DNA of 64,000 nucleotides from an uncultured cyanobacterium (GTDB lineage Bacteria; Cyanobacteriota; Cyanobacteriia; CAKZMO01). Numbering within the stretch: position 1 is the stretch's first letter; the number at the start of each line of letters is the position of its first letter. Location of the stretch: contig CAVRCJ010000011.1 of NCBI GenBank assembly GCA_963719515.1, positions 435,035-499,034 of the forward strand, given 5' to 3'. Under the pieces are notes generated by a model. That model saw only the letters and a program-made list of their open reading frames with translations, had not been told where the DNA came from and did no database searches. Positions 5,002 through 56,186 of this stretch are shown piece by piece. The translations under genes and the position numbers were made by a program.

Positions 5002-5404
5002 TGATACCACTGGCGAATTTTATGTCTTGTTGCATCTCGGCTATTTCCTGCTCCGAAGAAGGCCCCCTTTTCTGGTATGCCCGAAGGGCTTTAAGCCTCC
5101 AATTGAGAGGACTTCAGAGAAGTCAGAACTCCTTGAAGTCAATAGCGACAAATAGTATGGCCACTCGGGTTCCCCCAGAATTGATACCGCTGGCGAATTT
5201 TATGTCTTGTTACATCTCGGCTATTTCCTGCCCCGGAGAAGCCCCCTAAATCCCCCAATTCTGGGGGACTTCAGAGAAGTCAGAACTCCTCAAAGTCAAT
5301 AGCGGTCAATGGTATAGACGCTGCTTGGGTTCCCCCAGGATTGGGGGCGGAGGGGGCCTCCAGAGCGTGCAACTCAATTACAAAATATTTCGCCAGCGGT
5401 ATCA
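5002..5404. mobile_element. Nested MITEs: truncated copy 5002-5181 plus full ~223-bp copy 5182-5404
   Basis: Terminal inverted repeats TGATACCRCTGGCGAA...TTCGCCAGCGGTATCA; the two internal sequences are near-identical to each other and to 14172-14393. Confidence 0.85.
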
Positions 5405-5556
5405 AGCTTGGCGACAGGGCGCACAGAGAGTTAACCCTTTGGGCCTCGTGCTCGTGCCGTACCAAGGGCTCAGGCGATCGCCTGCTAGGACTGCGACAAA
5501 GACAGCGATCGCCAGTAATCTCATCAGGACAGTGGCGATCGCTGCTTGGATGGCGC

Positions 5557-5835
5557 TTACTGCAGGCCGCGCAGGCGCATCAGGTAGGCCAAGACCTGCC
5601 CTTCTCGGCGGCTGAGCCGCACACCGTCGGGGCCGATGGGCACGGGGCCGGTCCACAGGCTTTGCTCTACGAGGTAGCGGTTAATGTGCATCAGGTGAAT
5701 GGTTTCCCGGATGCCTTCTGGGGTGCCAATGAGGATGTGACGCACCACTTCGCCGTCGGGCTGATGCGGGGGATCGCTCAGGCGAAGCTGTGCCGCCTCA
5801 GGGCTGAGGGGCTGCTCGGGGATTAGAAATGTCAT
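5557..5835 (-). CDS. Small cyanobacterial protein of unknown function (RHILIG.P.G...W family), copy 1
   Basis: VRHILIGTPEGIRETIHLMH...LWTGPVPIG...GQVLAYL; homologous to ORFs at 18964 and 55341; RBS AAAGGAA. Confidence 0.75.
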   Translation of the reverse strand: MTFLIPEQPLSPEAAQLRLSDPPHQPDGEVVRHILIGTPEGIRETIHLMHINRYLVEQSLWTGPVPIGPDGVRLSRREGQVLAYLMRLRGLQ

Positions 5836-6085
5836 GGGTTGGGTTCCTTTCTGGTGTAGATGGGTAGGAAACCCAAGTTTGGCCACCCCTCACAAGGTTG
5901 AACCAGTTCGGAGTGGCCGTGGGAAAATAACCACAGCTTTCGAACAGGTCTGCTCTGTTTCGGAGGTCAGGCGGCGGCTGTCAATGCCACTGGCAGTCGC
6001 TGCCGTTATGACCAAAGCTTGGGAGTCGAACTGCGGGATGCAGCTCTCAAGACGAAATTCTAGGGCATTTGGGGATGGGTGGCAA
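5836..6085 (-). promoter_or_regulatory. Sigma70-type promoter (TTGCCA-N17-TAGAAT) followed by a ~215-nt structured leader ending in an RBS-occluding hairpin
   Basis: -35 at 6085-6080, -10 at 6062-6057; stems GGCCACTCC/GGGGTGGCC and GGGTTTCCT/AGGAACCC. Confidence 0.6.
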
Positions 6086-6168
6086 GAGCCAGTGCTGCGA
6101 TCGCAAAGGCTCAATCGCCCCAGCGGCTAAAATAGACCCAACCCGTCTCAAGCGATCGCCGTGACGCC

Positions 6169-6831
6169 ATGATCATTTCTACCCAGGTCAGCGAGCTAGA
6201 GCTAGACACCACTAGCGGGCAGCTCACCCAAACCGTCACCCTTGCGGGCATTAGCTGGCCGACCTACCAGGCTATGCTCACCGACATGGGAGAGCACCGC
6301 GCTACCCGCATCGCCTACAACCAGGGAACGCTGACCCTCAAAATGCCATCCAAGCTCCATGAGATTATCAATCGCCTGCTGGCGCGCATTGTTAAAACCT
6401 TGACTGAGGAGCTGGGCTTAGAGGTGGTGGATGTGGGGTCTATGACGCTGGAGCGCGAAGATTTGCGCAAAGGTGCGGAGCCCGACACTGGGTTCTATAT
6501 CCAAAATGCGTCTCAGTTGGACGGGCTCGACCCGCAGATCCCGGCGGGGCTGCCACCGGATCTGGTGATTGAGGTGGATATTACGAGCCCGTCTACTCAG
6601 CGCATGGCGATTTATGAGGCGTTGGGGGTGCCGGAGGTTTGGCGCTACACCAAGCGGCAAGGGCTGGTGTTCTATCGGCTGGATGGCAATGCGTACGTGG
6701 AGGCTGAGGTAAGCGTGGCGTTTGGGCAGGTTTCTTCGGTGCAGCTGAATGCGTTCTTGGCGGCGCGGCAGCACAAAGGGGAGAATCAGGTGATTCGTGC
6801 GGTGCGCGATTGGGTTCGCGGGTTGGAGTAG
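6169..6831 (+). CDS. Uma2 family (DUF820) endonuclease-fold protein
   Basis: ISWPTY...EPDTGFY...PPDLVIEVDITS...YEALGVPEVWR. Confidence 0.92.
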   Translation: MIISTQVSELELDTTSGQLTQTVTLAGISWPTYQAMLTDMGEHRATRIAYNQGTLTLKMPSKLHEIINRLLARIVKTLTEELGLEVVDVGSMTLEREDLRKGAEPDTGFYIQNASQLDGLDPQIPAGLPPDLVIEVDITSPSTQRMAIYEALGVPEVWRYTKRQGLVFYRLDGNAYVEAEVSVAFGQVSSVQLNAFLAARQHKGENQVIRAVRDWVRGLE

Positions 6832-6946
6832 GCGGCGTCTTGTCTTTTGAGATTTGGGATTTGGGCGATCGCTGCTGCTGTAGATGATGGGTATCATCTG
6901 AGAATAGCGGCCAGGTTGAAGCAGCTTTATTAAGAGAGGATGACTT

Positions 6947-7210
6947 ATGACTCAAGTGACTATCGAGCTGCCAGACCAGGTGGCGAGAGACTTAGAAGCT
7001 TATCTCCAGGCTAATTCGCAGGAGAGCTTGGCTGAGCTAATCCATGAGGTTCTGCAGGTTAAGCTACCGTCTACTCTGCCCTCTAAGGCGATGCAGGGAA
7101 ACGATTCTTCCTTGGTTGATTTCTTCCGTAACTCTCCGCTCCAAGCTGTGGCTGGGGAGATTGACCTGAACCGCGATGATCGCGCTGCTGACGAACGTAT
7201 TACTCTATGA
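6947..7210 (+). CDS. Putative type II antitoxin (VapB-like)
   Basis: VTIELPD N-terminus, SLVDFFRNSPL...LNRD C-terminus; ATGA overlap with the PIN toxin gene. Confidence 0.7.
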   Translation: MTQVTIELPDQVARDLEAYLQANSQESLAELIHEVLQVKLPSTLPSKAMQGNDSSLVDFFRNSPLQAVAGEIDLNRDDRAADERITL

Positions 7211-7629
7211 GGTATTTGCTCGATACCTGTATCATTTCGGAGCTTGTTGCAAAGCAGCCTAACCCCAAAGTCTTGAGCTGGGTTACAGACCAGCCTGACG
7301 AGAACTTGTACTTATCTGTCATTACGATTGGAGAGATTAAGAAGGGAGTTTGCAAGCTGCCAGATTCTAAACGTAAATCCGCGCTGTCTGCTTGGCTAAG
7401 GCAAGACCTCCTAGTTCGCTTTGCAGGCAGAGTTCAAGCCGTCGATATTGAAACTATGCTGTATTGGGGAGAGCTGCTAGGCCGTTTAGAGACCCAGGGT
7501 AGAGCACTGCCGCTTTTAGATTCTTTGATCGCGGCGATCGCGCTTCGAGGTTCTTTTCAGCTTGTAACACGTAATGAGAAGGACTTTGATAGAATAGGTG
7601 TCTCTATAGTGAATCCATTTGTAGGGTAG
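7207..7629 (+). CDS. vapC: VapC/PIN-domain toxin
   Basis: YLLDTCIISE...SVITIGEI...DSLIAAIA...LVTRNEKDF. Confidence 0.92.
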   Translation: MRYLLDTCIISELVAKQPNPKVLSWVTDQPDENLYLSVITIGEIKKGVCKLPDSKRKSALSAWLRQDLLVRFAGRVQAVDIETMLYWGELLGRLETQGRALPLLDSLIAAIALRGSFQLVTRNEKDFDRIGVSIVNPFVG

Positions 7630-17282: not shown

Positions 17283-18241
17283 TTGGCAGACGAAGCGTCA
17301 GCAGGAAAGAAGCCCCGTGCTCCCCGTAACCGCACCCTGACCCTAAGTGCGGCGGAGCGGTCCGAGTATCGGCAGCGGCTGCTGCAGCTGAGCGAGCCCG
17401 CAGCCCTAGAGGCGATCGCGGTCGTACCATCCACCAAAACCTGTTTGAGGCGCTGCCCCACCTGCCGCCCCATTGCATCGACCTGCTGGTGGTGGACCCG
17501 CCCTACAACCTCGACAAGGTTTTCAATTCCACCCGCTTCAAAAAGACCGACCTGGGCACCTATACCGACTGGCTGGCGAGCTGCTTTGACGGCCTGCTGC
17601 CCCTGCTAAAGCCTTCGGCCTCCATCTACATCTGCGCCGACTGGCAGTCCTCCCCGGCGGTGTTTCGCGTTGCCCAGTCGCGCTTCCACGTGCGCAACCG
17701 CATTACCTGGGAGCGAGAAAAAGGGAGGGGAGCCCGCAGCAACTGGAAAAACGCCTCGGAAGACGTCTGGTTTTGCACCCTATCTAATCGCTATACCTTC
17801 AACGTGGAGGCGGTGAAGCTAAAGCGGCGGGTGCTGGCTCCCTATCGGCAGGCGGGCGCTCCTAAAGACTGGGACGAGACCCAGCAGGGCAACTTTCGCC
17901 TCACCCATCCCTCGAATCTCTGGACCGACCTGACGGTGCCGTTTTGGTCGATGCCGGAAAACACGGACCACCCCACCCAAAAGCCGGAGAAGCTGCTGGC
18001 AAAGCTAATTTTGGCGAGCTCTAACCCGGGAGACTTCGTGTTTGACCCGTTTCTAGGGTCGGGCACAACCGCCGTGGTCGCCAAAAAGCTGGGGCGGCGC
18101 TACCTAGGGGTGGAGCAGGACGAGCTGTACTGCTGTCTGGCGGAAAAGCGGCTGGCTTTGGCGGCGGAGGACTCCACAATTCAGGGGTTTGCGGAGGGGG
18201 TGTTTTGGGAGCGCAACACCGGCAGGCTGCGTCGAGTTTAA
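17283..18241 (+). pseudogene. Orphan N4/N6 DNA methyltransferase with a one-base deletion near 17420 (or assembly error)
   Basis: DPPYN, HPTQKPE and DPFLGSGTT motifs; the N-terminal RAPRNRTL frame joins ...RTIHQNLFEAL if one base is added. Confidence 0.85.
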
Positions 18242-18704: not shown

Positions 18705-18963
18705 TTGTCTTGCTGCCGCAAATGCTCTATTCTCTGGAGCTAGAGCCGTGGTCCCCATGGCTTTGTCTCCCAAGAATTCGGTCGGGCGGAGCTACGTGTT
18801 GATACCAACAACCCGTAGCCCCTAATCCCACAAGACAGCGTGCACTGTCTCGGCAGGACTGAGGTTGATCATAAGAGATACCCGTGTCATCCGAGCAAAA
18901 CAACGTTTTGAGGGTGGCCGGTTTTTGGGGGACTCCTAACCACATCGACTTAAGGAGTCCCTC
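18705..18963 (+). promoter_or_regulatory. Sigma70-type promoter (TTGTCT-N17-TATTCT) followed by a ~225-nt structured leader ending in an RBS-occluding hairpin
   Basis: -35 at 18705-18710, -10 at 18728-18733; stems GTCATCC/GGGTGGC and GGGACTCCT/AGGAGTCCC. Confidence 0.6.
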
Positions 18964-19343
18964 ATGGTATCTCAATATAATTCGCTGCCCTTGGCTCAAG
19001 AGGCAGCAAAGATCGCTATAGCCCAGCAGCTCGCGGCAGACCAGGCCGCGCGGCTTGCTTCTCCCACCGAAGCAGAGCCCCACATCCCTGCGCTAATCGA
19101 GCCTGCCCCCGCGCCAGGGTGTGTTGGTCCCTTCAGGACCAGTCGCAGACTCACACCTGCGTCACATCATTATCGGCTCCCCCGACGGCGTGCGCCACGC
19201 CATTGAGCGGCTACATGTGCTGCAGTACGTCGAGGGGCGGCTGCTGGACGCCGCTGATTGCTATCGGTGATAAAGGCATCCATATCACTCCTGCCCACGG
19301 GCAGGTGCTGAGCTACCTGGTGCAGCAGCGGCCTCTGCGTTAG
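18964..19343 (+). pseudogene. Small protein family copy 2, with two frameshifts (about 19153 and 19235)
   Basis: Reassembled HLRHIIIGSPDGVRHAIERLHVLQYVE...WTPLIAIGDKGIHITPAHGQVLSYLVQQR aligns with 5557..5835. Confidence 0.7.
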
Positions 19344-54959: not shown

Positions 54960-55340
54960 TTGCATAACCGGCCCGCATACTGTAATCTGGCATGCCATAG
55001 CCCTTAATACAGCTATACGCCTATGTAGCAGCCCATCAGTCCATCAAGCCAACTACGCCTCCTAACTGTGCCGGAAACACAGCTAGAAGGCTGAGCCCCA
55101 GCGCTGAACAGAGCAGCACGGAGACCTATTCTGGATTTTATCCTGTAAGGCCATCCTGCTTTGTCCTGCCCGGCCTCCCGGTGCAGCAGCGGGGTGGCTT
55201 GATTGTTTGGCTCCTTCATCGGCAGCGCCGTTCGATCGACAAATCATCGTATCGGCGCGGCATTGACACGGTAGGGACATGGCATGCCATGTCCCTACAA
55301 AACCTATCGAACACAACCAAACAAACACAGGAATTCACCC
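54960..55340 (+). promoter_or_regulatory. Sigma70-type promoter (TTGCAT-N17-TAATCT) followed by a ~345-nt structured leader
   Basis: -35 at 54960-54965, -10 at 54983-54988; stem GGCCATCC/GGGGTGGCTT; TTGTTTGG/CCAAACAA pairing next to the RBS; REP-like insertion at 55271-55298. Confidence 0.55.
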
Positions 55341-55707
55341 ATGACCACACCCAATAAGCCCAACCAACCCAACGAACCCCGTACGGGCAACCGGCCGGTT
55401 GCCCCAACCAATCGCCCCAACCCCTTCCCTCAGCCCGAAGACCCCAACAACGACACCCTGCAAATCATCGCCATCGGTCCTCGCACCGTCGTCGACCACT
55501 ACATGATTCGCCAGCACCAGCTCAACTACGCAGAGCCCAAAGAATGGAGCTGCGTCCTCCCCGCTCCCGACGGCATCAACGCCATGCGCATTCTCACCAA
55601 GCGCTTTCCCAAGCGCCGTAACGATTAACCTCTTCTAGCGCAACCTCATCCAAAACGGGCTGAGGCGATCGCATACCTCGTACGGGCAAGCGGCCGCTTG
55701 CCCCAGC
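55271..55707. repeat. Three REP-like palindromes (55271-55298, 55381-55408, 55680-55707)
   Basis: GTAGGGACATGGCATGCCATGTCCCTAC; GTACGGGCAA.CGGCCG.TTGCCCC twice, one inside the ORF. Confidence 0.65.
55341..55628 (+). CDS. Small protein family copy 3 (divergent)
   Basis: LQIIAIGPRTVVDHYMIRQHQLNYAEPKEWS matches the (R/Q)(H/I)I.IG....V...I...H...Y.E...W pattern. Confidence 0.65.
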   Translation: MTTPNKPNQPNEPRTGNRPVAPTNRPNPFPQPEDPNNDTLQIIAIGPRTVVDHYMIRQHQLNYAEPKEWSCVLPAPDGINAMRILTKRFPKRRND

Positions 55708-55772: not shown

Positions 55773-56186
55773 CTACATCGCCTCGCTCATTTCCACCGAT
55801 GGCGGCGCACTGTTGGCTTCGGCCTCAGACGACGGCTCCACAGCCTCTCGCCGCGATCGCCGCTTCCGCTCGCTCTTGCGCACCCCGCCCGCCATCTCAT
55901 ACTCCGAGCTATCCTTGCCGTAGTGAAACGCCACCCCCAGCAGCATCTGCTCCGACTGATCTAGCAGCAGCCTCTCAGCCCCCAGCATATTGTTGTAGGC
56001 CGCATCCACCGTAGACAGCAGCGTATTGTAGCTGGTCAGCTTTTGTCGCACATCATCAATCATTTGGTAGAACCCCTCTAGCGTCAGCCCATTGCCCAAA
56101 TCCAGGTTTGAGTCAATAGACATCAAGGCCGCCGCCCGCCGCTCCGCTCGCTCTAACGCCTTAGAGCTACGCTTTCGTCGTGCCAT
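55773..56186 (-). CDS. Conserved helical hypothetical protein
   Basis: MARRKRSS..LERAERR...IDSNLDLGNGLTL...YGKDSSEYEMAGGVRKSER; RBS GAGG. Confidence 0.8.
   Translation of the reverse strand: MARRKRSSKALERAERRAAALMSIDSNLDLGNGLTLEGFYQMIDDVRQKLTSYNTLLSTVDAAYNNMLGAERLLLDQSEQMLLGVAFHYGKDSSEYEMAGGVRKSERKRRSRREAVEPSSEAEANSAPPSVEMSEAM

Follow-up and report, generated by a model that had tools for sequence, protein, structure and literature searches.

Three units, each made up of a promoter, a long structured leader and a small coding region, lie in the 64,000-nucleotide stretch of cyanobacterial DNA that was analysed (the window). The promoters, leaders and coding regions of the "three copies" described in an earlier note on this DNA were found where it had placed them, and they are merely 3 of 78 loci of one family in the genome. 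The features of the first copy and its neighbours are as follows.

6057..6085, minus strand: sense promoter, TTGCCA-17-TAGAAT, with 10 of 12 matches; the sole site in 5300-6300, with start-codon spacing as in the paralogues
5836..6050, minus strand: leader of about 215 nt (221 nt from -10 to ATG)
6028..6046, minus strand: 5' hairpin P1, its wobbles biased towards the sense strand in subfamilies A1 and B
6009..6025, minus strand: 5' strand of helix P2, long-range partner 5872-5885; sequesters the anti-Shine-Dalgarno (anti-SD) sequence in the predicted ON state
5972..6005, unstranded: P3 hairpin with a hypervariable loop of 7-8 nt; better pairing on the plus (antisense) strand
5943..5959, unstranded: P4 hairpin with a 5-bp stem and a hypervariable 7-nt loop
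5923..5928, plus strand: predicted antisense -10 box, GAAAAT
5935..6025, plus strand: predicted cis-antisense RNA of two hairpins, about 75-95 nt, drawn from the sequence
5872..5917, minus strand: P6 helix and 3' strand of P2, overlapping the anti-SD
5839..5876, minus strand: P7 hairpin, burying the Shine-Dalgarno (SD) sequence in the predicted OFF state
5557..5835, minus strand: ORF of 92 aa with a Pro-rich N-terminus and a soluble beta-alpha-beta core, without known family
6169..7629, plus strand: Uma2 gene, 87-aa ORF and PIN-domain gene, neighbours of copy 1 outside the unit

The other two copies are read from the plus strand, with the predicted antisense RNA on the minus strand.

18705..18963, plus strand: copy 2 promoter and leader
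Copy 2 helices: P2, 18765-18783 with 18916-18933; P3, 18787-18822; P4, 18834-18849; SD strand, 18953-18961
18765..18873, minus strand: copy 2 predicted antisense -10 box TATGAT (18873-18868) and antisense RNA from near 18861
18964..19343, plus strand: copy 2 coding region with two frameshifts
54960..55340, plus strand: copy 3 promoter and 352-nt leader
Copy 3 helices: P2, 55042-55051 with 55195-55205; P4, 55101-55119
55042..55140, minus strand: copy 3 predicted antisense -10 box TAAAAT (55140-55135) and antisense RNA from near 55128
55341..55628, plus strand: copy 3 ORF of 95 aa, divergent subfamily

Much of what the earlier note had read from the letters was borne out. All three promoters have 17-nt spacers (TTGCCA/TAGAAT at 6085-6057 on the minus strand, TTGTCT/TATTCT at 18705-18733 and TTGCAT/TAATCT at 54960-54988), AAATGCYC precedes the -10 box in copies 1 and 2, all three copies have the GYCA..GGGTGGC stem (P6), and SD-burying hairpins are present in copies 1 and 2. 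Other readings required correction. The element CTCCCAAG, taken to close the first hairpin, instead pairs over a long range with the anti-SD and forms the 5' strand of that helix. A hairpin containing ACAG had been assigned to every copy; in copy 3 the ACAG sits in the P4 loop, outside the stem, and the match is therefore coincidental. Three homologous ORFs had also been proposed. Copies 1 and 3 both match the family HMM (their proteins share 19% identity), but 18964-19343 is not one ORF: the coding region of copy 2 is spread over three reading frames and carries two single-base insertions relative to the closest intact paralogue, L045, so that it is either a pseudogene or an assembly error. 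Programmed frameshifting in copy 2 was rejected, as paralogues with the same 9-residue insert stay in frame. This in-frame insert lies ahead of the core in a branch of subfamily B (window 19115-19150, L005, L006, L039, L045, L060 and L061), and the DNA encoding it holds a small inverted repeat. An insertion behind P2, about 120 nt long and shared with one paralogue, L043, accounts for the length of the copy 3 leader. Within the insertion is a 28-nt perfect palindrome (55271-55298), probably a small dispersed repeat; its GTAGGG..CCCTAC pattern occurs 25 times in the genome. All three leaders folded better than every shuffled version (z of -3.7, -4.4 and -4.5 for copies 1, 2 and 3).

A search with an HMM of the protein core found 78 loci in the 5.28-Mb genome, a count repeated in a second search, and these were dispersed over 18 of the 21 contigs among chromosomal genes. 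The 65 loci with a recognisable promoter and leader (about 220 nt) were kept and the remaining 13 were left out. A start codon was assigned in 63 of the 65, and the distance from the -10 box to the start codon was 214-233 nt in all but 4 of these 63. For the leader alignment (A2, MAFFT), 56 leaders were used, after removal of 7 divergent or longer leaders (copy 3 among them) and 2 without a start codon. Comparisons were made among subfamilies A1, A2, B and C and an external set. Two modules of the same genome, L020 and L025, have a deviating leader layout that the leader parser could not read. As judged by eye, homology among copies extends from just above the -35 box to the stop codon, and no shared termini or terminal repeats were seen at the module ends.

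The protein is present in at least 35 of 301 sampled genomes of the phylum, with up to 17 candidates scored in each, and in all 8 other genomes of the same taxonomic family, with 1-49 matches each, so that copy number within that family ranges from 1 to 78. The long-leader motif was matched in 39 of 108 external loci, one of the 39 being a false parse, with examples in Elainellaceae, Crinalium and Synechococcales assemblies. Many other external relatives have a short one-hairpin leader or adjoin HTH/ParG genes on plasmids. Short-leader relatives (L067, L079, L085, L089, L130, L134, L157, L168 and others) have a single hairpin, whose loop is often of the TTGG/CCAAG type, followed by a small SD hairpin. 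In a loose parse, 31 of 47 such loci have ATnATG or ATGAT around the start, compared with 2 of 63 long-leader copies; this context could represent an antisense -10 box placed over the start codon, a second arrangement resembling that of SymR.

Proteins of the family are 90-120 aa long, and just one Gly and one Trp are invariant. Second codon positions differ at 0.10, compared with 0.28 at four-fold sites, and the protein core is therefore under purifying selection. In AlphaFold models (mean pLDDT 73 for copy 1 and 81 for the relative P0038), a Pro-rich, disordered N-terminus precedes a beta-alpha-beta core. No membrane helix was found in 59 proteins, in which the maximum 19-residue hydropathy was 0.25-1.2. 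Pfam had no match for the family ORFs in the window. PHROGs, NCBIfam and PADLOC, searched with five proteins each, assigned no family, the single PHROG match being 8 residues long at E 0.67, and the ESM Atlas returned unnamed cyanobacterial clusters only, with no usable named match. Searches by fold gave no PDB match and no viral structure match at E<=0.001; in VIA the best scores were Z 4.5 and 4.1, with ties, and none reached Z 5. These fold-search results show neither a new fold nor a function.

The leader begins with the 5' hairpin P1, followed by the long-range helix P2, the hairpins P3-P6 that P2 encloses, and then P7. P2 joins the 5' end of the leader to the strand containing the anti-SD, and P7 pairs the anti-SD with the SD; because they share the anti-SD the two helices are mutually exclusive, and both covary. 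The covariation figures that follow are not probabilities, since the structure was picked from the same alignment and the paralogues are related and not independent: for the helices of the ON state (56 leaders), 85.2% of cells were paired versus 71.4 in shuffled alignments, 343 cells were double changes versus 123, and the score was 0.384 versus at most 0.106 in slid controls. Changes on both sides were seen in 7 of 18 P2 pairs and 13 of 14 P3 pairs. For P6 and P7, 85.9% of cells were paired and there were 89 double-change cells versus 36 in shuffles; both sides had changed in 6 of the 10 pairs of P7, the helix that sequesters the SD in the leader. Two of the five measures, pair count and pair type, did not exceed the shuffles, either for the ON set or for P6 and P7. 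This covariation supports the proposal of the earlier note that the leader is a functional structured RNA through which translation is repressed.

At gathering score, Rfam matched SRP RNA only in the whole window, had no match for the copy 1 leader, and gave sub-threshold matches only for 20 loci at E<=5. A relation to T-boxes was considered from GGGUGG, which we take to be a T-box motif, and was abandoned since, in subfamily B, the motif changes together with the strand it pairs with. No literature describing the family was found, within coverage that takes in a minor part of the subscription literature. A screen for RNAs in 202 cyanobacterial genomes was anchored on KEGG orthologs and, by its own statement, excluded overlapping antisense RNAs (PMC12873609); its supplement could still list part of the leader. 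This is apparently an undescribed RNA-controlled gene family, marked by its copy number and by the diversification of its loops.

The opposite strand of the leader carries signals of its own, and the transcript predicted from them had been overlooked in the earlier note. The P5 loop reads ATnnTA (TAnnAT on the antisense strand) in 66 of 96 parsed leaders, several of the 30 misses being misplaced windows, compared with a mean of 7.9 after shuffling and 0 in upstream windows. In a parse-free comparison the best antisense TATAAT-like hexamer lay 120-139 nt past the sense -10 box in 55 of 63 leaders; the sense strand gave 15 of 63. The box is TAAAAT or TACAAT in most paralogues and a weak GAAAAT in copy 1. 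No conserved antisense -35 box was found among the leaders.

An A-C mismatch on an mRNA corresponds to a G-U pair on the antisense strand. Helices were located by Watson-Crick pairs alone and the mismatches classed afterwards; the -10 box served only as a parse anchor. P3 had 92 A-C to 13 G-T mismatches, P4 had 47 to 3 and the flanking extension 50 to 6, so that P3 and P4 together held 139 antisense-type and 16 sense-type wobbles. The bias of P3 was present in A1, A2, B, C and the external set separately. The remaining helices lean the other way: P2 had 111 G-T to 31 A-C, P6 had 49 to 12, P7 was without clear bias (36:38 in one parse, 23:17 in another), and P2, P6 and P7 together held 196 sense-type and 81 antisense-type wobbles. 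In 93 of 96 leaders, all three window copies included, the antisense strand of the span also has the better fold (-39.9 versus -26.2 kcal/mol for the opposite strand in copy 1, -43.3 versus -21.9 in copy 3). A cis-antisense RNA is therefore likely to be made from a promoter inside the leader, as far as sequence can indicate. In copy 1 it would start at 5935, about 100 nt upstream of the ATG at 5835, and be transcribed away from the SD. As an intrinsic terminator for its 3' end, no terminator-like site was found in 5300-6300 (copy 1). Wobbles in the 5' strand of P2 were neutral (8:9), so that reach of the antisense RNA into P2 is assumed, and a third antisense hairpin at this strand was not supported.

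The loops of P3 and P4 differ among paralogues about twice as often as synonymous sites. Divergence was compared in 15 non-overlapping pairs chosen by leader similarity and in 16 pairs chosen by ORF similarity. In the former, the P3 loop differed at 57 of 104 and the P4 loop at 48 of 103 positions, versus 84 of 306 four-fold sites; the P7 loop differed at 47 of 209 and the P4 stem at 3 of 150. In the latter, the values were 60 of 106 and 51 of 110 versus 92 of 379 (p 1e-9 and 2e-5, with sites treated as independent). The columns of the antisense -10 box differed at 0 of 73 positions in leader-chosen pairs but at 14 of 76 in ORF-chosen pairs. All 56 pairs of P3 and P4 loops are unique. A raised mutation rate in hairpin loops may be an alternative cause, but other loops have no such excess. 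L029 and L054 have leaders 99.5% identical outside the two loops and ORFs that differ at 10 of 31 four-fold sites, a contrast which suggests that leaders may be exchanged between copies.

Loop complementarity to the copy's own module and 300-nt flanks was not above that of other copies (smallest p 0.027 among 12 tests), and co-occurrence of sites for both loops elsewhere in the genome was not above chance (ratios of 0.95 and 0.92 versus a null of 1.02). A fully complementary cis-antisense RNA allows for loops that match neither module, flanks nor paired genome sites. A bridge-RNA-like role, in which the loops would match the insertion site, was rejected because the loops have no match to the flanks.

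These strand and loop data also bear on the possibility that the leader is a riboswitch-like cis-regulatory RNA sensing a ligand or protein, with the antisense signals as by-products. Such an RNA would account for the many branches of the fold, for an SD platform that covaries and can be switched, and for a leader length fixed at 214-233 nt in most copies. The loops are, on the other hand, the least conserved positions, without conserved unpaired nucleotides of a ligand pocket; the A-C mismatches of P3 and P4 can pair, as G-U, on the antisense strand alone, the chief unpaired motif that is conserved is an antisense -10 box when read from that strand, and Rfam has no match. We consider this explanation improbable. 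Among the choices that the earlier note had offered, the riboswitch is disfavoured, as is a C4-like processed RNA, given the lack of an Rfam match and of a/b target boxes; antisense control is best supported, by the conserved antisense -10 box, the strand-specific wobble pairs and the hypervariable loops.

The unit is thus probably a cis-antisense translational attenuator, in which each leader would be repressed by its own short antisense RNA with copy-specific loops. Each copy would be self-contained, with a promoter, a bistable leader of about 220 nt and a small gene. P2 would form on the growing mRNA before the SD is made, giving ribosomes a period in which to load. With its two loops the antisense RNA would first contact P4 and P3 and then zip into the 5' strand of P2; with P2 blocked, P7 would close over the SD. 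The unique loops would limit each antisense RNA to its own copy. The weakest step is the last, that the protein is harmful or costly in the manner of type I toxin-antitoxin systems, to which we give somewhat less than an even chance.

Folding predictions show what the attenuator would need. P2 forms in 53 of 59 copies when the SD strand is barred and is present in the minimum-energy fold of 24 of 59. The ON fold lies a median of 4.8 kcal/mol above the minimum (59 copies), and the model therefore needs folding kinetics. With the antisense span blocked at equilibrium, SD accessibility was lower in 15 of 59 copies (mostly subfamily C), higher in 1 and unchanged in 43, copy 1 (0.24 to 0.23) being counted as unchanged. 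In most copies of subfamilies A and B the SD is buried even in the minimum-energy fold, which would make repression appear superfluous at equilibrium. This would suit a leader that is OFF by default, with an antisense RNA that activates it or is itself the real product, a trans-acting sRNA whose loops read cellular or foreign RNAs; multi-copy sRNAs with variable target loops have been proposed for the C4-like RNAs of Acinetobacter, as described in PMC5320573. Activation is hard to reconcile with the opening of the SD in just 1 of 59 copies when the span was blocked, and a trans-acting role with the chance-level loop matches given above, both to a copy's own module and flanks and at paired sites elsewhere. 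We regard this reading as unlikely.

Comparable antisense control operates in plasmid replicons and type I toxin-antitoxin loci of about 4-14 copies, according to PMC4147584 and PMC1891008. By analogy, the unit would work like the pT181 attenuator and is laid out like Ldr/Rdl, as these are described in PMC5435934 and PMC4147584. In the pT181 repC leader, kissing-loop binding of the antisense RNA removes a competing strand and a downstream hairpin containing the ribosome-binding site forms (PMC5435934). Here, too, a predicted cis-encoded antisense RNA would act in a long 5' leader and an SD hairpin would be released by removal of a competing strand; P2 competes with P7 as the alternative helix, and its 5' strand, into which the antisense RNA would have to reach, is wobble-neutral (8:9). 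Unlike in pT181, the hairpin here has no U-tract, and control would therefore be translational; 0 terminator-like sites lie in 5300-6300 around copy 1, the product is a chromosomal protein of 90-120 aa where pT181 encodes a plasmid Rep, and one genome has about 65 copies.

Ldr/Rdl and hok/Sok, as described in PMC4147584, resemble the family in their repeated chromosomal units, in the length of the 5' leader and in a short antisense RNA, predicted for the family, that lies over the leader and spares both SD and start codon. Ldr, a peptide of 35 aa, has 4 copies, compared with 65 here, and most type I toxins span the membrane, whereas the family protein is soluble; SymE and RalR are soluble exceptions (PMC4147584). 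The leader-peptide coupling of hok/Sok and Ldr/Rdl has no general counterpart, as only 20 of 63 leaders have an upstream frame that follows an SD and extends to the start region. In Ibs/Sib, variable recognition regions set specificity among paralogues, as proposed here, but Sib covers the whole ORF and the ribosome-binding site, unlike the predicted antisense RNA (PMC2943612). Loop nucleotides likewise set specificity in RNAI of I-complex plasmids, which has a single loop and controls replication (PMC10724649).

SymE/SymR (Rfam RF01809) is similar in its soluble protein of about 110 aa, its several copies in some genomes and its two-hairpin antisense RNA, but SymR overlaps the SD and start codon, whereas the RNA predicted here starts about 100 nt upstream of the ATG (PMC1891008, PMC4147584). 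The SymR model matched the predicted antisense strand and span in 3 of 20 loci at 25-27 bits (best 26.9) versus a gathering score of 61, and the resemblance is therefore one of shape only. The family protein had no SymE/AbrB match in Pfam, and the fold searches gave no match of any kind at Z 5 or more. MsoT1/MsoA1 of Microcystis, a type I candidate from a cyanobacterium, likewise has a cis-antisense RNA of two hairpins; its 63-aa protein with membrane helices and the position of its antisense RNA, at the 3' end, set it apart (PMC12390103). No other cyanobacterial type I candidate was found in the literature covered. C4 of phages P1/P7 and its multicopy Acinetobacter relatives are multi-branch RNAs closed by a long helix, with variable loops and many chromosomal copies, but C4 is released from the sense transcript through RNase P cleavage and has separate a/b boxes as its targets (PMC5320573). 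No such boxes were found for the loops, own and other-copy matches being equal in the module body and 300-nt flanks, and Rfam C4 had no match. On the features tested, the family does not belong to pT181, SymE/SymR, C4 or the typical membrane-toxin type I systems.

Of the first 60 of the 65 modules, 17 had a toxin-antitoxin, restriction-modification, TIR or transposase gene as upstream neighbour, compared with 2 among 40 gap-flanking genes taken at random (p=0.004); the category was defined after the matches were known, and without transposases the comparison was 14 versus 0. Among the 13 loci not kept, one decayed locus retains the promoter and P1-P4 and has lost the antisense -10 box, the SD and half of the ORF, its start included; two others have an intact ORF and P7 but lack the promoter, the P2 strand and the antisense unit. 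This pattern, which is anecdotal, fits a product that must not stay unlocked. A bolder and rather doubtful proposal is that about 60 mutually orthogonal antisense attenuators, with two kissing loops diversified by positive selection, each lock an undescribed soluble toxin; these toxins would guard variable defence islands and be set free once antisense synthesis ceased, as might happen when a phage infects or the locus is lost. A chromosomal family of 65 members whose loop pairs are all unique would illustrate how RNA-RNA recognition diversifies against cross-talk. An RNA family and a protein family, neither of them represented in Rfam, Pfam, NCBIfam, PHROGs or PADLOC, would be gained as well, along with orthogonal RNA switches ready for use in engineering cyanobacteria.

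The earlier note had further suggested that the unit spreads selfishly. The range of copy number, 1 to 78 within one taxonomic family, and the differing occupancy of one site among relatives agree with this; terminal repeats were not seen by eye and no mobilising enzyme was identified. At the site, near recQ, a subfamily A2 module is present here and a 5'-truncated subfamily B module in G304 (L182:2167-2312), and the G302 and G303 stretches have none. The modules could accordingly be non-autonomous mobile elements or the control regions of decayed ones, with loops that guide insertion or a switch that limits a mobility factor, and the short-leader relatives that adjoin HTH, ParG or replication genes on plasmids would fit such an origin. 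Homology that runs from above the -35 box to the stop codon without shared ends (by eye) and loops without a match to the flanks speak against it, as does the lack of a convincing phage relative: a phage collection gave no match and four viral scans gave two short matches at E 8e-4. There is little probability, in our view, that mobility explains the unit, and the antisense attenuator remains the preferred reading.

Some members are divergent from an XRE/HTH repressor-like gene (G000:C14:59910 on the minus strand, L075-L084, L096 and L067); the HTH is annotated on the plasmid locus L067 and the remaining cases were judged by eye. This suggests that protein control may replace RNA control at such members. 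Beside copy 1, the 87-aa ORF after Uma2 overlaps the PIN-domain gene, forming a VapBC-like pair (6169-7629). A DNA methylase (N6_N4_Mtase) gene lies upstream of copy 2 and is preceded by a 256-aa ORF without a Pfam match (17489-18241, ~17951-18238). Convergent with copy 3 is a 137-aa ORF (55773-56186, minus strand) without a Pfam match, and a similar-looking ORF follows the C10:120438 module. Elsewhere in the window are, by Pfam, a phycobilisome gene, which together with the taxa of the homologues points to a cyanobacterial host, and a bacterial small SRP RNA at 1676-1772 (Rfam RF00169, 60 bits).
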